11,498 nucleotides of DNA from a virus (taxonomy: Duplodnaviria; Heunggongvirae; Uroviricota; Caudoviricetes). Positions 1 to 8,911 of the stretch are shown one piece after another; positions within the stretch are counted from its first letter, which is position 1, and every line of letters begins with the position of its first letter. A program made the translations under genes and the position numbers. The notes below the pieces were generated by a model. It saw nothing but the letters and a program-made list of their open reading frames with translations. It was not told the origin of the DNA and did not search any database. Location of the stretch: IMG/VR virus record IMGVR_UViG_2698536395_000021. One strand, 5' to 3'.

Positions 1-351
1 GCCTGCGATGCCCTGCAGATGGCGCTGTGGCGGCGTAAGAGGCCCCGGAACGTTATCGTTCACACGGACCGTGGAGGCCAGTACTGTTCAGCAGATTATC
101 AGGCGCAACTGAAGCGGCATAATCTGCGTGGAAGTATGAGCGCAAAAGGTTGCTGCTACGATAATGCCTGCGTGGAAAGCTTCTTTCATTCGCTGAAAGT
201 GGAATGTATCCATGGAGAACACTTTATCAGCCGGGAAATAATGCGGGCAACGGTGTTTAATTATATCGAATGTGATTACAATCGGTGGCGGCGGCACAGT
301 TGGTGTGGCGGCCTCAGTCCGGAACAATTTGAAAACAAGAACCTCGCTTAG
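1..351 (+). CDS. IS3-family transposase OrfB (DDE integrase core), C-terminal part; 5' end outside window
   Basis: Frame is open from base 1; the listed ATG at 19 is internal. Translation ...[55 protein letters not shown]...[19 protein letters not shown] matches the conserved C-terminus of IS3-family OrfB (IS2/IS3/IS600 pattern; IS600 assignment from memory). Confidence 0.9.
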
Positions 352-381: not shown

Positions 382-502
382 CGCAGGGGTCGGCCCATTT
401 GAGCTTCAGATAGGAACGTTTGAATTCCTTTCACAAAATACATCACATACTGAACGTGAACATTCCCACTTTGATCTTAAGGCCAAAAAGTATGCAGGAC
501 TA

Positions 503-2221
503 ATGATTTTTAGGGATAGCTTGAGAGTATTACCTTATGGTCGAGTAGATAATGATTTCTTCCAGATAGAAGAAAGACGTTCATGGAATGCAGGGCGATA
601 TTATTGGTCTAATAGAAGGATTTTTGGTTATATTGGAATTACTCAATCCAGTAATAAAGAGCTGAAAGATAAGTCGGGGAGAGAGGGATTCATAAGAAAC
701 CAGGCTGCAAGAGAACTGAAAACTATTATATCTAATTTGTTAACTGAACTTGCTGATAGATTTTTTGGTTCACGTTCTGATGACCGTAAAGAGCTTTTAG
801 AACAAGTTAAGCGTGAAAAAGAGTTAAGAAAATCTGCTCAACAACAAGCTCGAAAATCAACACAAAAAAGTTTTTCAGAAGCTTTGAAGAATCAGACACC
901 AGTTCTTGATGCTTCCTTGGAGGCTGTTAAAAGGCTGAAAACTAAGCTTGATAAAACTGATGGTTCGTTAGATTTAAACTATCTTAAAATTATAGACAGT
1001 GATCTTACAAACTTAGATGCGTTGCGCAGTGAAATTAAAACGCCTATCAAACCTCCAAAACTTGGAATGTATGAAGAGAAATATAGAGACTACAGAGATA
1101 AATTTAATGAGTTCTCTGCGTATATTCTACAAATGAAGTTAGCAATTAATAAACTTGATTCTGAATTAAATAAACTTGAGCCTTCATTGTCAGCGAAAAA
1201 TCACCTTGAAAAAAATCAAGGTATTATTAATTCTAAACTAACTAAGTTTAATAACACGATAGAGGAGAAGATACATTCTCTTTTAAAAAAATGGGCCGAT
1301 GAAATAAAGGTTGATCGAAGTGATTATTATGCTAAAACTATATCAGTTGTTGATTCAATAGATAATGATTCACAAATTGAAAATGTGTTTAATTTGCTCG
1401 ATAGTTTATATGTTGAGTCAGTTGATACCCTAACTTTCAAATATCAATCAATAATAAAAGGTCTCGATAGATTATTTGAAGGTATAAACTTAGATTCAGC
1501 ATTCTCATTATCTGAAGAAGAACGCTCATATTTTGAAGAAAAAGCTAAAAGTTTAAACGCGCTTGCACAGTTAGGTATTAGTGTTGAGATAATATCTCAT
1601 GAACTTGAAGAAATGGATTCTATGGTAACCAGAGGACTAAACTCTCTTCCTACTTCTGTAAAAGAACACCCTGGTTTTTCATTGGCGTTAAATGCTCACA
1701 GATCGCTTACTCAACAAATACGTTTCTTATCACCTTTGAAAATATCAGGTTATCAATCCAGGCAGAGAATAACTGGAAAAAATATCATGGATTATGTCCT
1801 GAAGTTCTTTGGGGAGCGTTTCGAACGGCAACGAATAACTATTGAATTTAGTGAAGAGTTTAAGCAAATCGCAATAACAGATATACCATTAAGGATCTAT
1901 CCTGTTTTTACTAATATTATCAACAATGCAATGTATTGGGTCAGTCTGTCAAATAATAGGCTCATAAAGATTGGTTTTGTGAATTCTTTGGTTATCATAG
2001 CAAATTCTGGTCCGGCAATTGATACCGATGATATCCCGCGACTATTTGAACTATTTTATAGCAAAAGAGCAAATGGACATGGGGTAGGTCTGTATCTATG
2101 TCGAGAAAACCTTGCTGTTGCACATCATAAAATATGGTATTCAGAACCTGATGAAGGCGATAACTATTTAATAAAAGATGGCGCTAATTTTGTGATCCAG
2201 TTCAATGGAGTGGAGTTCTAA
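503..2221 (+). CDS. Soluble histidine-kinase-like protein: N-terminal domain, long coiled coil, DHp-like His-box, C-terminal HATPase_c; possibly N-terminally truncated by the upstream IS
   Basis: 572 aa ORF, AGGA 4 nt upstream of ATG. No obvious TM segments. Coiled-coil-like region (KELLEQVKREKELRKSAQQQARK...). His-box-like ISHELEEM. HATPase_c motifs in order: N-box VFTNIINNAMYW, G1-like IANSGPAID, F-box-like LFELFYSKR, G2 GHGVGLYL. Motifs seen directly; domain assignment is by comparison with the histidine-kinase consensus from memory. Confidence 0.8.
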   Translation: MIFRDSLRVLPYGRVDNDFFQIEERRSWNAGRYYWSNRRIFGYIGITQSSNKELKDKSGREGFIRNQAARELKTIISNLLTELADRFFGSRSDDRKELLEQVKREKELRKSAQQQARKSTQKSFSEALKNQTPVLDASLEAVKRLKTKLDKTDGSLDLNYLKIIDSDLTNLDALRSEIKTPIKPPKLGMYEEKYRDYRDKFNEFSAYILQMKLAINKLDSELNKLEPSLSAKNHLEKNQGIINSKLTKFNNTIEEKIHSLLKKWADEIKVDRSDYYAKTISVVDSIDNDSQIENVFNLLDSLYVESVDTLTFKYQSIIKGLDRLFEGINLDSAFSLSEEERSYFEEKAKSLNALAQLGISVEIISHELEEMDSMVTRGLNSLPTSVKEHPGFSLALNAHRSLTQQIRFLSPLKISGYQSRQRITGKNIMDYVLKFFGERFERQRITIEFSEEFKQIAITDIPLRIYPVFTNIINNAMYWVSLSNNRLIKIGFVNSLVIIANSGPAIDTDDIPRLFELFYSKRANGHGVGLYLCRENLAVAHHKIWYSEPDEGDNYLIKDGANFVIQFNGVEF

Positions 2222-2222
2222 T

Positions 2223-3971
2223 ATGACAGTGGCAAATTATAATTCTCTTGTCCAGAAAACTTTCTGCGAAAATGCAATTCGTTCCGTTGTCATGATTGAT
2301 GACGATTTTCTGACGTATTCTGAATCAATCAGGGCGTTGAATAACGAAGTTGATTTAGACTACAACAAAATTGACTCATCTAAACGAGCCGCTACTCTTG
2401 AGAGCTTTTTTCAATCTAAAAATATGATTTGTGATGTTGACAATGGTTCTGTTAATTTCGATGTGGATCGGATTAGAAAATCAGATCTTATTATTGTAGA
2501 TTATCATCTTGATAATAATGCACCTGATAAAACACTTAAACTATTACAAGATTTGAAAGACTCCGATCATTTAAATATGATTGTAATATATACTAGAGAG
2601 AATTTAGAAACGGTTTGGATGCAGATATCATCGACTCTCAAAGGTGCTCTGGATATCAACAGCTTGATCATTGACTACGATAATGAAGATGTCCAAAGTT
2701 ATTGGGAAGACGTTGTATTACCGAACTTAAATGATAATGGTAATAAAGCTCTCACAAGAGATGAAATAATAGCCTATATTAAAGACAGTAAGCCTTGTAG
2801 AAGAATTAAAAGATTAATACATGATGATGCTGTGTTGGAGGATCAAAAGGATAAAAACTTCATTGCAAAAATGATTGCAGAATATGCTGTGTCTAGAAAT
2901 GCAATTATTTCTAGCAACACATCTGGCAATGTCATTCGGGGTGATGAAAGCGGAGTAAAATGGATTCAATGTGGTAATATCTTTGTCTCCCTATTTCATA
3001 AGGTTCAAGATGATCATGAAAACGATGGAGATAGGATTTGGCAAACTCTCAATGATTCTCTCATTGAATGGAAACCATCTTATTATCAGTTAATAAAATC
3101 TGAAATTCAGAATGCAATCGAAGCTGAGGCTTTATCTTTTGTAAATCATTTGGCTAACGATCATTACGGTCAAGCTGCGTGGTTAAATGAGATATTAAAA
3201 TCAGACTCGCCTGATATTAGATGTAGAAATATTGACTTTGTATTTGGTAATTTATCAGAAGAGCTTTATCAAAGACTTAAAAATAATAATACGCTGGATG
3301 AATTTATCAAAAGTGTTTTTGATAGCTATTCAAATGAATACGCTAACAGCGGAGTTGCTGCATTGCTCCAATATTGCTCTTCAAAAATGGATCTGCCATC
3401 AAATAATGATACTTATCACGAAATGTATCATGCTTTAAATATGAATTTGTCTTCAAAGAATTTTGAAGATGGTCATATTTCTACTGGCACTATTTTCTTT
3501 GATACAGAGTCGAACAAATGGTATTTATGTGTATCTGCGGCATGTGATTTGGTTCCTACTCAGGGTAACGACCCTCACCATGTAAGATTAAGTCCGCACA
3601 GGCTCATTAAAGTTCTGGAGCTTTTTAACGCCAGTCAGAGTAAAGCATTGCCATTTGCTGAACATTCGAAATATATATATGTAATGCATAAAAATCAAAG
3701 AAAATATCTCTCTATTTTCGAAGGGGATAAAACGCTTCCTGTTGTTGATTATATGGTGGTGTTGAATCATGGAACAACAGTTGATGGCGAAGAAAAAAAT
3801 ATTATTTCTGCCGTGTTTTTAAGTAATATGGATGGCAACGTGCAAAATGTTCCTGTCCGACTCAAACTTAAATCTCAACTGAGAACTGGTTATGCAGAAA
3901 GATATCAGGCTATAGCGTCTCAGTATAGCTCAAGGATTGGTGTGGATTATGTATCAATGATGCTACCATAA
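2223..3971 (+). CDS. Receiver (REC)-like domain protein with a large C-terminal domain of unknown function; no recognisable DNA-binding output
   Basis: Start moved from the ORF-track ATG at 2205 to ATG 2223 (MTVANYNSL...): it lies 1 nt after the upstream TAA (2219-2221) and 7 nt after GGAGTGGAG. The N-terminal ~130 aa fits a receiver fold: VVMIDDD (acidic pair), DLIIVDYHLDNN (candidate phospho-acceptor Asp), NMIVIYT (conserved Thr position), then a Lys. The remaining ~450 aa show no motif I can assign. Confidence 0.8.
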   Translation: MTVANYNSLVQKTFCENAIRSVVMIDDDFLTYSESIRALNNEVDLDYNKIDSSKRAATLESFFQSKNMICDVDNGSVNFDVDRIRKSDLIIVDYHLDNNAPDKTLKLLQDLKDSDHLNMIVIYTRENLETVWMQISSTLKGALDINSLIIDYDNEDVQSYWEDVVLPNLNDNGNKALTRDEIIAYIKDSKPCRRIKRLIHDDAVLEDQKDKNFIAKMIAEYAVSRNAIISSNTSGNVIRGDESGVKWIQCGNIFVSLFHKVQDDHENDGDRIWQTLNDSLIEWKPSYYQLIKSEIQNAIEAEALSFVNHLANDHYGQAAWLNEILKSDSPDIRCRNIDFVFGNLSEELYQRLKNNNTLDEFIKSVFDSYSNEYANSGVAALLQYCSSKMDLPSNNDTYHEMYHALNMNLSSKNFEDGHISTGTIFFDTESNKWYLCVSAACDLVPTQGNDPHHVRLSPHRLIKVLELFNASQSKALPFAEHSKYIYVMHKNQRKYLSIFEGDKTLPVVDYMVVLNHGTTVDGEEKNIISAVFLSNMDGNVQNVPVRLKLKSQLRTGYAERYQAIASQYSSRIGVDYVSMMLP

Positions 3972-4042
3972 TTATTATATTTTAGGCGTGGTGATTTTTT
4001 TTCGCCATGCCTATTTTATATTTATCATCACAATGATGTTGT

Positions 4043-4459
4043 TTATTTTTGTTTAAGTCTTCTAAGCTTCATGCATTCTAATGAGAATAATAATAGAGTT
4101 GTGCTGTATATAAAGCCAGAGTTAGTTAATAACTTTAAATTTAATGCTTCAGGATTTTCACTGAGAAAGTGAAAGGCATAAACTAAGTATACAGCTAAAG
4201 TAGCCGTTCCAATTGTTGGTCCAATATCGCCTTGATCATGAGGTTCAAGGTTTACATTGAACTTGAAGATTAGCCATTCAAATCCCCAAGTAAAAAAAAC
4301 AACTAATATCATGGCTGCGAATAATTTCGCGATGTTATCTGCTGATGGATTCATCAGAACAGATTGTTTCTGAAAAAATTCACAAAGTGAGAGTCCGAAA
4401 AAAATAAAAAAAAGTGGTCTGGAACTAAATTTTTCAAAAACTTTGAATAGGGTTTCCAT
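4043..4459 (-). CDS. Small hydrophobic membrane protein (about 4 predicted TM helices), function unknown
   Basis: 138 aa ORF with ATG start, 38 bp downstream of and co-directional with the integrase. Hydrophobic stretches PLFFIFFGLSL, LFAAMILVVFFTWGFEWLIF, ATLAVYLVYAFHF, FIYSTTLLLFSL. AT-rich like the adjacent cassette. Confidence 0.6.
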   Translation of the reverse strand: METLFKVFEKFSSRPLFFIFFGLSLCEFFQKQSVLMNPSADNIAKLFAAMILVVFFTWGFEWLIFKFNVNLEPHDQGDIGPTIGTATLAVYLVYAFHFLSENPEALNLKLLTNSGFIYSTTLLLFSLECMKLRRLKQK

Positions 4460-4497
4460 TTTCTTTACCTTCAGGATTATATTAGCTATTCTGATAC

Positions 4498-5727
4498 TTA
4501 GGCTACCAGAGCATTTGATCTTTGAGCTTGAACGTAATCACTCCACCATTGCATCAAACTCTGTCGCTCTATCAGATATTCTGCACGATTGTATGCTGCG
4601 ATAATTTCATCTTTTTTCGAGTGGGCAAGCGCTGCCTCAAGAACTTCAGCTCTGAATTTACCAGACTCCTCTGCCGCTGTTCGTGCAATAGAACGCATAC
4701 CGTGAGCTACAAGCTCGCCTCCGAACCCCATTCGGATGATAGCTGCGTTGGCTGTTTGTTCATGCATATGATTAAGAGGCGCTTTTATGCTGGGGAAAAC
4801 CCATTCTCTATGCCCACTTATTGATTTCATTAATTCAAGGATGCGCAAAGCTTCTTTACTCAAAGGAACTTTGTGAAGCTTTTTCATTTTCATGAAATCA
4901 GCAGGAATGTTCCAAATGCTGTTGGTTGTATCAATATCAGACCACCTTGCGCGAACGGCTTCACCCGGACGAACCCATGTCAACAATTGCCATTCAATTA
5001 GCATACGTGTTTCCAACCGGATTGACGCATTCGTCAAAGATTCCATAAACCTTGGCAATTCGCTTGGGGGAAGGGCAGGCATATTTTGCTTTTTTGGTTT
5101 ACTGAATCTTTGACCAAGGTTGTCAGCCGGGTTGAACTCAATAAGTTCTTCAGTAGCTGCCCACCGGAAGATTTCATTCAGACGTGAAATGATACGGCGT
5201 AGAGTTTCCAATACGCCTCGTTGCTCAATAGGATCAAGGTGTTGTTTTAAGAGCTTAGGTCGGATCTCATTGATAGGGACATTACCCAGACCGGGAAAGA
5301 CATTTCTCTCTAAGCTGCGCCAGATGTCTGCTGCATGGTCTTGTGAGATACCTGATGTCTTTACCTTCTCATCTAACCATTTCCGCGCTACGGCTTGGAG
5401 AGTGTGCTCAGTAGCACTCTTTAATGCCTTCGCCTTATCGTTGTTATGGATTTGGGGATCAACACCATTTGCCAGAAAGGAGAGATATTCATCACGTAAG
5501 GCTCTGGCTCTTGCAAGGGTAAGGTGAGGATATGTCCCAAGGCTCATTTTGGTTCTTTTCTTGCTCACGGGTACTGCATACCTGAAATACCAATTTTTCT
5601 TGCCTCCTTTCGCCAAAGGAGCGATTCGTAGAATCAGACCATCACCGTCAAACAAGTTGATTTCTTTATCGGCTGGCTTGGTGCTTTTGATTTCAGTGTC
5701 AGTGAGCTTCTTAGCGATTTTTGCCAT
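4498..5727 (-). CDS. int: P4-type tyrosine integrase (IntA/CP4-57-like)
   Basis: Start taken at the ATG at 5727 (MAKIAKKLTDTEIK...), which has GAGG 8 nt upstream and aligns with the N-terminus of E. coli IntA as I recall it; the ORF-track start at 5769 has no SD. Matches include DGDGL, ADIWRSLERNVFP, ALRILELMK, HGMRSIARTAA, LAHSKKDEIIAAYNRAEYLIERQSLMQWW. Confidence 0.92.
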   Translation of the reverse strand: MAKIAKKLTDTEIKSTKPADKEINLFDGDGLILRIAPLAKGGKKNWYFRYAVPVSKKRTKMSLGTYPHLTLARARALRDEYLSFLANGVDPQIHNNDKAKALKSATEHTLQAVARKWLDEKVKTSGISQDHAADIWRSLERNVFPGLGNVPINEIRPKLLKQHLDPIEQRGVLETLRRIISRLNEIFRWAATEELIEFNPADNLGQRFSKPKKQNMPALPPSELPRFMESLTNASIRLETRMLIEWQLLTWVRPGEAVRARWSDIDTTNSIWNIPADFMKMKKLHKVPLSKEALRILELMKSISGHREWVFPSIKAPLNHMHEQTANAAIIRMGFGGELVAHGMRSIARTAAEESGKFRAEVLEAALAHSKKDEIIAAYNRAEYLIERQSLMQWWSDYVQAQRSNALVA

Positions 5728-5824
5728 TTTGGGACCCTCGGTTTTTGGACCCTTCTTAGTGGGTCCCATTCAGGGTGCCATAACTCGTAGTTCTCAGCAA
5801 TTCTCACTGGACGACAATAGACGT

Positions 5825-6025: not shown

Positions 6026-6967
6026 TTAAGTGGCCACTTGAAGTTCCGGCCCTGCGTCGCTATCTATTAACGGCTGACCTTGAACCATTTTTTCAACCAT
6101 ATCGTTTGAAGGATATGGAACCCCGAGCTCAACCGTATTAGGGTTGGAACGGTGGGTTTCAACAAACGATGTTCCGTTCCATTTTTTTGAAAGGTAGATT
6201 ATTCCTTCAAAGGCTGCAGGGTCCTGTTTCTGAGACTCTAAGATCATGTGGAAGCCACGACGTTCTATCCCGCGTAAGAAGCTGGAGAAGCACTCCCTCA
6301 GTAATTCGTCATCCAAATCCTTGAACTTGATACCCTGCGCAAGAAACTCGAAATAATTAAGAATATATAAAAGGCCATTGATGGCATCCCTGTACTCATC
6401 GGGGACCTTCATATTCTTGTATTCTTCTTTGTCTGGGTTGCAGCGCCACTCTGATAGTTCTTGTGGTACATAACGCATGCCCCGATAGAATTTGGTGCTG
6501 TTCCGAAGCTGTTTTTGGTACTCCGGGCTTGTTCGGGTGTTAATGATCATGTTCAGCGTGTGGGACCTGCGCGTGTTAGCAGCGGACGTTATGCATTGTA
6601 TCCACCATCCCATTCCAACGAGCATTCCTGTAACCATGATCGAAAGCGATGTTTGATAGGCCGGTGTGTACCTTAAAATTGCATATCCAATAAGGATAAT
6701 CACATAACAAACAGTGCTGAACATAGGAAGAAATTCTGCAGTGTCTGGATAGCGTTTTTTGATGAAGCAGAAGATAGAAGATATTGCTGCACCAGAACCA
6801 GCAATGACGATCAGCCAATCAATGATGGCGATGCTAAATGGTAGTTTTCCAGGGTAGATATAAGTAAAAAGTGCTCTGACAATCATCATTAGAGCAAAAA
6901 TTGTAGCGCTGACGTTGACTAATGTTCTCGCCATCTTATTGATTCCTATAACAAAAGACCTCCGCAT
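6026..6967 (-). CDS. Membrane protein: N-terminal about 4 TM helices plus about 180 aa soluble C-terminal domain; function unknown (prophage cargo or moron candidate)
   Basis: 313 aa ORF with ATG start (alternative Met 12 codons in, MARTLVNV...). Hydrophobic segments ATIFALMMIV, AIIDWLIVIAGSGAAISSIFCFI, MFSTVCYVIILIGYAIL, SIMVTGMLVGMGWWI, then a charged C-terminal domain. Sits between the lambda-type int 3' end and the att core. Confidence 0.75.
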   Translation of the reverse strand: MRRSFVIGINKMARTLVNVSATIFALMMIVRALFTYIYPGKLPFSIAIIDWLIVIAGSGAAISSIFCFIKKRYPDTAEFLPMFSTVCYVIILIGYAILRYTPAYQTSLSIMVTGMLVGMGWWIQCITSAANTRRSHTLNMIINTRTSPEYQKQLRNSTKFYRGMRYVPQELSEWRCNPDKEEYKNMKVPDEYRDAINGLLYILNYFEFLAQGIKFKDLDDELLRECFSSFLRGIERRGFHMILESQKQDPAAFEGIIYLSKKWNGTSFVETHRSNPNTVELGVPYPSNDMVEKMVQGQPLIDSDAGPELQVAT

Positions 6968-7416: not shown

Positions 7417-8592
7417 TCAGCTTGACACAACATTTATAGACGTTTTACCATCGTATTCAGCCAGGTATTTACCGTAATTGCGGAACAGCATTTCCGGCCC
7501 CTTATGCCCCATCTGCCCGGCAAGCCAGAAAAGGTTTACACCCTGGCTAATGTGTCTGGTGGCGAATGTGTGGCGCGTCTGGTACGGGTTACGGTAGCGC
7601 ACACCAGCTTTTTTCAGGGTCGGCACCCATGCTTTTTTACGGATAGCGTCGGCGTTCGTCCAGGGTTCTCCCGTTTTCGGATCGCTGAATATGAACTCAC
7701 TTTTCATAAAGGTGTATTGCTTCTGCGCCTGCAGGGCTGCCAGCGCCTCACTGTTCAGCTCCACCTTACGGGTACCGGCTTTTGTCTTGGTGCCTTTAAG
7801 TACCCCTACGACACTGGCCGCCTGAACGTGGGCTGTGTTCGCGATGGTGTCGAGATCAGCCCAGCGCAGCGCGCACAGTTCTGAGCTCCGCAGACCTGTA
7901 TTGAAAGCAAAGCGGAACAGGTTTTCCCATTCCCTGTACCTGCAGCTCTGGTAAATGGCAAGGGTCTCCGCTGGCGTGAACGGGTCAACCTCGTAATCGT
8001 CGGCGCTCGGGCTACTGTCGATCACGTGGTACCGGCTGGCGCTGACGAGGGTTACCGGGTTAATGGTCAGCAGGCCATCCGTAACAGCTTCATCAATGGC
8101 GCTGCGCAGAAATGACAGGTTATTCCTGATTGTTTTCAGCTTAGTTTTTCGGCTGGCTATCCAATTTTTTAGTATCGCAGGCGTCAATTCTGTTACATGT
8201 AGTTTATGTAGTTCTGATAGTGCTGATAGACATTTTTCGTAACCGCCAATGGTTGACGGCGACAGATTACGGTTTATGCAAATTTTCAGGTATTCATCAA
8301 GATAGGACTTAATATTTTTGGTTTTCTTTACTACACCGAATAACTCCAGTTTTTTGGAATTGGGGAAATATTTCGCATATTCAAACGTTCCGCTGGCGAT
8401 CTGATTTTGTATCTCCCCTAGCAGGCGCTCAGCATATTTTATACCACGTGTATTTGCCTCAAGCCGAGATAGGGGCTCCCTGCAAAGAACCCCTTTATAT
8501 GTGAAAGTGATAACTAGTGTTGAAGCAGTTTTATGCTTACGAATAGTTACTCCTCTTGGCAGAGATAATAATCCTTGTTCTTTCTTGCCCAT
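7417..8592 (-). CDS. int: Lambda-type tyrosine integrase (phage integrase family)
   Basis: Start taken at the ATG at 8592 (MGKKEQGLLSLPRGV...), with AGAGG 7 nt upstream; the ORF-track start 8619 is 9 codons further up. C-terminal catalytic region ...LRWADLD...RHTFATRHISQGVNLFWLAGQMGHKGPEMLFRNYGKYL has the conserved R/H/Y pattern. 5' end overlapped by an excisionase-like gene, as in lambdoid xis-int. Confidence 0.9.
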   Translation of the reverse strand: MGKKEQGLLSLPRGVTIRKHKTASTLVITFTYKGVLCREPLSRLEANTRGIKYAERLLGEIQNQIASGTFEYAKYFPNSKKLELFGVVKKTKNIKSYLDEYLKICINRNLSPSTIGGYEKCLSALSELHKLHVTELTPAILKNWIASRKTKLKTIRNNLSFLRSAIDEAVTDGLLTINPVTLVSASRYHVIDSSPSADDYEVDPFTPAETLAIYQSCRYREWENLFRFAFNTGLRSSELCALRWADLDTIANTAHVQAASVVGVLKGTKTKAGTRKVELNSEALAALQAQKQYTFMKSEFIFSDPKTGEPWTNADAIRKKAWVPTLKKAGVRYRNPYQTRHTFATRHISQGVNLFWLAGQMGHKGPEMLFRNYGKYLAEYDGKTSINVVSS

Positions 8593-8756
8593 TTTGAAAC
8601 CTCTATTAAGTCGACCCAACGCTCTTTAACCCCGTCGACTTTTAATACATGTACCCCTTCTTTCCATATTCCTCTTTGTATCCGTTTGTTAACGGCATCA
8701 ACCGTTTCTCCCGCGTTGCGGCAGTAGGTTGATATAGGTACGCAATCCAGCCCCAC
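8547..8756 (-). CDS. xis: Excisionase-like small DNA-binding protein (Xis family, tentative)
   Basis: 69 aa ORF starting with GTG, overlapping the int start by about 45 nt. The segment GETVDAVNKRIQRGIWKEGVHVLKVDGVKERWVDLIEVSKWARKNK resembles the lambda Xis winged-helix region (ETVRRWVRE...VKDGREYLF) as I recall it. Start codon uncertain. Confidence 0.6.
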   Translation of the reverse strand: MGLDCVPISTYCRNAGETVDAVNKRIQRGIWKEGVHVLKVDGVKERWVDLIEVSKWARKNKDYYLCQEE

Positions 8757-8764
8757 AGTTCACC

Positions 8765-8911
8765 TCACACAACATTCAGCCCACGACAGTGACACCACAC
8801 TTCAAACATTCGTTTCACAATTTCACGACAGTAGAAACCGTCAACATCTCGCGTCAGGTCATAGCGATTGCCGAATGTCTTGCGAACCCATAACTCAAAA
8901 ACCGTATGCAT
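8765..8911 (-). CDS. Hypothetical 48-aa Cys-rich small protein
   Basis: Hand-translated: MHTVFELWVRKTFGNRYDLTRDVDGFYCREIVKRMFEVWCHCRGLNVV. ATG sits 3 nt after the upstream gene's TGA, same strand as the operon. Below the ORF-track length cutoff; no similarity evidence. Confidence 0.3.
   Translation of the reverse strand: MHTVFELWVRKTFGNRYDLTRDVDGFYCREIVKRMFEVWCHCRGLNVV

Follow-up and report, generated by a model that had tools for sequence, protein, structure and literature searches.

The 11,498-nucleotide (nt) stretch of DNA analyzed here (IMG/VR virus record IMGVR_UViG_2698536395_000021; "the window" hereafter means this whole stretch) is Escherichia coli DNA and encodes an intact protein, which we call the receiver protein, in which a CheY-like receiver is followed by about 300 residues that match no family. 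In relatives from several bacterial phyla, the gene is accompanied by those for a large histidine kinase and a C5 methylase. We consider it an even bet, judging from sequence comparisons, that this output region serves as effector in a conflict or defense module that is linked to a methylase and controlled by a phospho-relay; that it acts in a toxin-like manner is a guess. The initial annotation of the window had treated the protein as part of a module. The receiver protein is real, whereas the module as it stands in E. coli is a relic.

The receiver protein is genuine and widely conserved. Residues are numbered here on the 588-amino acid (aa) form throughout; however, the predicted product is the 582-aa form, in line with the RefSeq entry (WP_000214985.1, "response regulator receiver domain"), because homologs begin at the position of Met7 (a methionine kept in 87% of 214 sequences), because GGAG precedes the ATG at 2223, and because this ATG lies a single base beyond the TAA (2219-2221) of the upstream kinase gene, to which the receiver gene appears to be translationally coupled. 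A Pfam scan of the protein returned PF19192 (Response_reg_2) as its sole match, covering aa 25-181 with E 3.7e-31 and 109.1 bits (gathering cut-off 27). Beyond aa 185, no Pfam family was matched in any of 24 diverse homologs, NCBIfam and PADLOC scans of the protein gave nothing useful for the output region, and a profile search of all Protein Data Bank (PDB) sequences with the region after aa 185 produced one match at chance level (E = 1). No transmembrane helix is indicated either, the highest 19-aa Kyte-Doolittle mean being 0.96. Thus, at the sequence level, the initial claims that no recognized output domain follows the receiver and that the protein lacks transmembrane helices both hold.

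The extent of the output region had to be corrected. In a full-length AlphaFold2 model that drew on 44 homologs (predicted local distance difference test score [pLDDT] 84.5, predicted template modeling score 0.76), only four strands precede aa 134 (27-31, 75-79, 95-99, and 124-130); beyond the fourth, the chain continues through helices at 134-232, strands at 245-265, Lys266, and a helix at 274-289. Alignment with hhalign places D99 on CheY D57 and T130 on CheY T87, and a forced global profile alignment, of low confidence beyond strand 4, places K266 on CheY K109; from the topology of the model and this low-confidence alignment, we assign K266 as the conserved receiver lysine. These residues barely vary in the alignment of 214 full-length members from which all conservation figures are drawn (D99 in 214, T130 in 213, and K266 in 212 sequences, with the set made up of the acidic pair D32/D33, the phospho-acceptor D99, T130, and K266 spanning 197-214). 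The modeled structure is that of a CheY-like (beta/alpha)5 receiver with a full set of phospho-acceptor residues and a helical insert of about 100 aa between helix 4 and strand 5. This insert (aa ~147-244) is the least conserved segment of the protein, with a mean top-residue frequency of 0.24 and no column at or above 0.8. A fold search with the full-length model settled the receiver boundary. One domain of about 450 aa, starting near aa 130, had been proposed initially; because strand 5, Lys266, and helix 5 lie at aa 245-290, about a third of that stretch is predicted to be receiver fold plus insert, and the non-receiver part comprises only aa ~293-588, about 300 residues. A consequence for annotation is that PF19192 covers merely part of the receiver fold.

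Within the output region, the model distinguishes a helical domain, a beta-rich domain ending in a helix, and a short tail (Table 1). A separate model of aa 185-588 (pLDDT 80.9) agrees with the full-length one, in which pLDDT is mostly 83-92 across the helical domain, falling to ~70-77 over aa 301-320, and is below 50 for aa 577-588 of the tail. Conservation in this region is high: P291, N412, G428, and C447 are invariant in all 214 sequences, R577 is present in 213, G579 in 211, and D581 in 206, and G579, D581, D448, Q558, L559, R560, Y563, and R566 are conserved at 86-99%. Because the RIGVD motif of the tail is nearly invariant yet predicted to be disordered, it suggests a docking element or part of an active site that is completed in a complex. 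At a threshold of E<=1e-3, aa 185-588 matched 410 clusters (50% identity) among 1.84 billion representative proteins. Of the 150 best, nearly all are ~560-680 aa long, with the match behind the receiver, and no other architecture was seen; the output region thus consistently occurs behind this receiver, which favors the interpretation in the initial annotation. The family ranges from Enterobacterales and Acinetobacter to Alphaproteobacteria, Acidobacteriota, and Verrucomicrobiota. Taken together, the sequences indicate that the output region is dedicated to the PF19192 receiver and under strong constraint.

To describe the genetic setting, five loci fetched by the exact protein and 52 genome loci were scanned with hidden Markov models (HMMs) built for the purpose; 44 loci had adequate flanks on both sides. 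A C5 cytosine DNA methylase adjoins the kinase-receiver pair in 43 of these 44, from Enterobacterales to Acidobacteriota, lying either upstream in the same operon or downstream, and the genes of the module overlap or abut. The receiver gene comes last of the three in intact relatives. All 43 methylase-bearing loci encode a full-length soluble kinase of ~970-1,000 aa (~990 aa), in which an HATPase_c_3 domain of the GHKL type (aa ~28-140) is followed by the HEF_HK His box (~775-833) and then by HATPase_c (~880-985); the HATPase_c_3 domain is found in the kinase of every intact relative. Clustering of neighboring open reading frames (ORFs) revealed Vsr as the only other recurrent neighbor (18 of 52 loci); the 52 loci have no conserved gene for a nuclease, a helicase, or a second receiver. 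The surroundings are often mobile. P4-type integrases recur in five loci, with intact relatives adjoining such an integrase (in one, L003, next to smpB as well); an Acinetobacter locus is Tn7 cargo, with a controller-like (C-protein-like) helix-turn-helix gene beside the methylase; and the locus of another relative is a conjugative-type region with ArdC, type IV secretion system genes, and HipA.

The E. coli copy departs from this arrangement. The pairing of HEF_HK with Response_reg_2 is preserved in the window, where a gene with PF19191 and PF02518 adjoins the receiver gene one base away. Its product, however, is only the C-terminal 572 aa of the kinase, 88% identical to aa 420-991 of the 991-aa kinase of L003 (5034-8006). 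The N-terminal 419 aa, including the GHKL HATPase_c_3 domain, are absent, so that the protein starts at the equivalent of aa 420/991 and an HMM of the N-terminal half matches at positions 379-418 alone. The kinase gene abuts a remnant of an insertion sequence (IS) of the IS3 family, and no methylase match was found anywhere in the window by HMM scan. An IS3-associated deletion has removed the sensor half of the kinase along with the methylase. Among 5,426 complete E. coli genomes, about 560, with O26, O103, and many other strains among them, carry the stretch 400-4500 at 99-100% identity; every complete genome with this variant has the same truncation, and none keeps a methylase beside it. A GenBank entry (AJ304858.2) already labels the stretch a "remnant integrative element" with a "histidin kinase-like protein". 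The E. coli copies, in about 10% of complete genomes, are relics and should not be counted as complete systems. Because sensor and methylase are gone, the receiver protein of the window, itself intact, is probably an unstimulated, idle leftover, even though the truncated kinase core could still phosphorylate it. A second, independent case of the same joint loss, also associated with a transposase, was found in Gemmatimonadota (L041), where a transposase lies upstream of a kinase without its first ~75 aa and no methylase is present. Joint loss of methylase and sensor is what would be expected if the methylase protects against a sensor-driven activity, although the pattern comes from only two cases.

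Comparison of predicted folds gave a lead as to what the output region might do. The modeled beta domain superposes on nearly the entire chains of MazF/Kid/PemK and CcdB toxins (83-94 residues at 2.7-3.6 A root-mean-square deviation), a weak likeness, and the order of secondary structure over aa 417-575, with its terminal helix, fits the MazF/CcdB fold. The domain also differs from these toxins: at ~160 aa it is larger, it forms part of one chain with a helical domain and a receiver, and it has no antitoxin gene, clustering of neighbor ORFs having revealed no small conserved gene in the 52 loci. The catalytic Arg and Thr positions of MazF have no conserved counterpart in the beta domain. Foldseek against the PDB returned nothing significant for the output region (best E 0.05), no Pfam PemK_toxin or CcdB match was obtained in 24 homologs, and the helical domain (aa 293-416) had no meaningful structural or sequence match. 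We do not claim homology to MazF/CcdB, hhalign with the beta domain (214 sequences) giving 0.1% probability against reference sequences of both toxins. We therefore treat the MazF/CcdB-like barrel as a weak lead and not as a classification. In line with the initial annotation, the output region has no confident relative, and known DNA-binding and cyclase output domains, which that annotation had named as the alternative to an effector, were looked for and not found. Three other candidates were discarded as well: HEPN, as the conservation table holds no conserved Rx4-6H; an ADP-ribosyltransferase, as the R-S-E motifs occur in the wrong order; and PD-(D/E)xK, as no conserved (D/E)xK follows D448.

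Because the partners of the receiver protein are a methylase and a kinase, and no separate nuclease or effector gene accompanies them, the activity of the module would most plausibly reside in the output region. The absence of a rival effector gene across phyla thus favors the initial choice of this region as the best effector candidate. The family and its kinase pairing had already been published. In the mechanism we envisage, the GHKL ATPase part of the kinase would monitor DNA on which the methylase marks self. Upon meeting non-self, the His box and ATPase of the kinase would autophosphorylate and pass the phosphate to D99, a transfer we infer because the catalytic residues are intact and the genes coupled. 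Phosphorylated D99 would then release the helical and beta domains by way of the face formed by helix 4, strand 5, and helix 5, which carries the insert. The freed effector might be toxin-like, our best guess being an action on nucleic acid or on a nucleic-acid enzyme (RNA, DNA, or gyrase); this guess is prompted by the weak MazF/CcdB-like barrel and by the precedent of abortive infection in Detocs, discussed below. The P4-type islands, Tn7 cargo, and conjugative-type region are counted in favor of this reading, as is the match of the kinase N-terminus to a type II restriction-enzyme model described below. A more specific version, a new type of immune module in which a GHKL ATPase reads methylation to tell self from non-self and a His-Asp relay activates a diffusible toxin that is fused to the receiver and belongs to a domain family not described before, its barrel distantly MazF/CcdB-like, so that restriction-modification (R-M) logic is joined to abortive infection, is a tentative proposal that we would sooner doubt than assert.

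Several points weigh against an effector. First, the output region has no recognizable catalytic motif of a known nuclease, RNase, or other toxin. Second, an effector that is phosphorylated and free to diffuse would have no preference of its own for foreign DNA. Third, both the His box and the kinase ATPase domain are retained in the truncated kinase of E. coli, and about 560 complete genomes tolerate the pair although they have no methylase beside it. If phosphorylation freed a toxin, a kinase core without its sensor could be dangerous; this tolerance therefore counts against a simple model in which phosphorylation equals toxicity. Fourth, in Magnetospirillum sulfuroxidans J10 (L040), the methylase gene carries an in-frame stop (6431-6433) with the kinase and receiver genes intact, which argues against a simple lethal R-M logic. 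Finally, we found no experiment on any member of the family in the searchable literature; the Vibrio cholerae WonAB and DefensePredictor papers, which were considered as possible experimental studies of it, concern other systems. Another in-frame stop was seen in the receiver gene (8879-8881) of a metagenome-assembled genome (MAG) of Chthoniobacterales (L026), where methylase and kinase are intact. The stops in these two loci may be sequencing errors or reflect independent decay of individual components; the one in M. sulfuroxidans has a bearing on how essential the methylase is.

The output region could instead be the DNA-cleaving subunit of an unusual R-M system, an endonuclease of new fold whose cutting is licensed by kinase phosphorylation when the GHKL domain meets unmethylated DNA. 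The near-constant methylase, the frequent company of Vsr, the lack of any other conserved nuclease gene, and the C-protein-like gene beside the Acinetobacter methylase would all suit such a system, and for the related MORC/paraMORC GHKL ATPases a role in R-M systems, together with nucleases, has been predicted (Iyer, Abhiman and Aravind 2008, PMC2292703). The N-terminus of the kinase points the same way: in L003 (5034-5441, aa 13-136), it matches PADLOC model PDLC03419, "Type II restriction enzyme" (a 695-aa profile, positions 12-131), with E 1.6e-9, and because of this match some catalogued restriction enzymes appear to share the ATPase head of the kinase. A homolog search with the same N-terminus for GHKL restriction enzymes of ~695 aa yielded only fragments of the kinase family itself. 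However, neither a nuclease domain nor the catalytic motif of a type II restriction endonuclease was found in the receiver protein, the output region shows no signature or fold of PD-(D/E)xK, HNH, GIY-YIG, or PLD nucleases, and its conserved polar residues (N412, C447, D448, R560, R577, and D581) form no obvious metal-binding acidic cluster. Moreover, in a classic R-M system, a methylase pseudogene such as that of M. sulfuroxidans would be lethal as long as the other components stay intact. We regard a restriction subunit as unlikely.

An adaptor is, in our estimate, improbable to the same degree. Here the output region would be non-catalytic and phospho-controlled, binding and regulating the methylase, the kinase/ATPase, or a host target within a methylation circuit that involves no toxin. 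The lack of an enzyme signature and the tolerance of the receiver protein by E. coli without a methylase would be readily accommodated, the invariant disordered RIGVD tail looks like a docking motif, and a regulatory link of HEF_HK/Response_reg_2 to R-M systems has been proposed (Bellieny-Rabelo et al. 2021, PMC8011034). Against this, invariance of N412, C447, G428, and R577 across phyla is more typical of an active or ligand site, and mobile islands, transposon cargo, and conjugative-type regions are settings expected of conflict systems more than of housekeeping regulation.

Response regulators are for the most part transcription factors, and NCBI calls a few of the homologs "transcriptional regulator", but the reading that the protein is an ordinary regulator of this kind, controlling expression of its operon through a divergent DNA-binding output, is the least likely of the rivals and can be given very little credence, as the controller-like helix-turn-helix protein, where present, is encoded by a separate gene.

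Table 1. Features of the window. Positions are nucleotides of the window; residues follow the 588-aa numbering.
Feature	Position	Strand	Basis and remarks
IS3-family transposase gene, 3' remnant	19-351	+	ORF translation; IS3 transposase pseudogene in RefSeq; marks the deletion edge
Truncated kinase-like gene (HEF_HK, His box SHELEE, and HATPase_c)	503-2221	+	Pfam PF19191 E 1.2e-5, PF02518 E 1.9e-11
Receiver protein gene	2223-3971	+	582 aa from ATG 2223; ORF open from ATG 2205 (2205-3971, 588 aa), intact
Receiver fold, strands 1-4 and helices 1-4 (aa 25-146)	2277-2642	+	Pfam, conservation, hhalign; D32/D33, D99 (nt 2499-2501), T130
Predicted helical insert within the receiver fold, between helix 4 and strand 5 (aa ~147-244)	2643-2936	+	AlphaFold2 secondary structure
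Predicted receiver strand 5 and helix 5 (aa 245-290)	2937-3074	+	W253, F260, conserved Lys266 (nt 3000-3002)
Helical domain (aa 293-416)	3081-3452	+	Motif PSYYQ..SEIQNxIExE, invariant N412
Beta-rich domain ending in a C-terminal helix (aa 417-575)	3453-3929	+	Invariant G428, C447 (nt 3543-3545); D448, Q558-L-R560, Y563, R566
C-terminal tail (aa 576-588), motif R577-I-G579-V-D581	3930-3968	+	Near-invariant; disorder predicted for the monomer
P4-type tyrosine integrase of the integrative element carrying the module	4498-5769	-	RefSeq

Other features of the window and of the collected sequences were recorded in passing. A second tyrosine integrase (7417-8619, minus strand) belongs to the adjacent lambdoid prophage, which occupies 8.5-11.5 kb of the window; its tandem arrangement with the integrase at 4498-5769 is that of successive integrations at one site, and AJ304858.2 gives the site as that of CP-1639 integration. 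Directly downstream of the receiver gene, 4043-4459 (minus strand) encodes a predicted membrane protein of 138 aa whose only library match is a PHROG of unknown function. Members of its family lie at the corresponding place in loci of Citrobacter, Erwinia, and Serratia (L011, L012, and L016), and an accessory function in the enterobacterial module or in the island is possible. Alone between the integrases lies 6026-6967 (minus strand), encoding a protein of 313 aa that has several hydrophobic segments near its N-terminus and matches DUF4760 (E 8e-16). A 5.6-kb contig of a "Bacteroidales bacterium" MAG (L010, DAIPZW010000118.1) encodes a receiver protein 100% identical to that of the window and the same truncated kinase; almost certainly, this is a case of E. 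coli DNA assigned to a Bacteroidales genome by a binning error. A 453-aa form of the receiver protein (P0009, L063 4001-5359) was rejected as a truncated allele, as it ends exactly at the contig edge. In a cluster of 1,605 member sequences, this form is the representative; should breaks at that point within the gene prove common in draft assemblies, a repeat or an IS insertion in some lineages would explain them.

The HEF_HK/Response_reg_2 pairs described by Bellieny-Rabelo et al. are the same family as the one studied here, with a PF19192 receiver and PF19191 plus HATPase_c encoded upstream. That study reported 91.6% linkage of the two genes and enrichment of C5 methylase and Vsr nearby; the association with C5 methylases and Vsr is reproduced here in independent loci. 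It defines only the receiver and His-box domains, with no mention of the output region. Thus, the family and its kinase partner were already known, from Pfam and that one paper; the system as we read it would combine a Detocs-like relay, R-M-like protection by a methylase, and a MORC-type ATPase. New here are the receiver boundary corrected for the insert before strand 5, the division of the output region into two domains and the residues invariant in it, a fold weakly like that of MazF/CcdB, and the recognition that the E. coli locus is a relic. In MORC/paraMORC systems, the ATPase likewise starts with HATPase_c_3 and stands beside methylases and Vsr; there it is fused or adjacent to recognizable nucleases or helicases, whereas here it is fused to a histidine-kinase transmitter, and the output region of the receiver protein is the sole candidate output. 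A functional parallel is Detocs, a kinase-receiver-effector relay shown by experiment to defend against phage by abortive infection (Rousset et al., bioRxiv 10.1101/2023.01.24.525353). The proposed module would follow the same plan, in that a kinase of the cytoplasm passes phosphate to the Asp of a receiver to which a non-transcriptional effector is fused. In Detocs, the kinase DtcA carries a TPR sensor, a stand-alone receiver (DtcB) acts as buffer, and the effector joined to the other receiver (DtcC) is mostly a PNP ATP-nucleosidase. In contrast, the module described here pairs a GHKL ATPase (HATPase_c_3), its putative sensor, with a methylase; it lacks a buffer receiver, and its candidate effector region is unrelated. 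No stand-alone receiver recurs in the 52 loci, PADLOC gave no Detocs match, and no sequence relationship to Detocs was detected. If the output region is indeed an effector, it would found a new effector domain family of ~410 clusters at 50% identity and provide a second example, after Detocs, of two-component signaling used directly for defense rather than for gene regulation, in this case tied to DNA methylation and a MORC-related GHKL ATPase.
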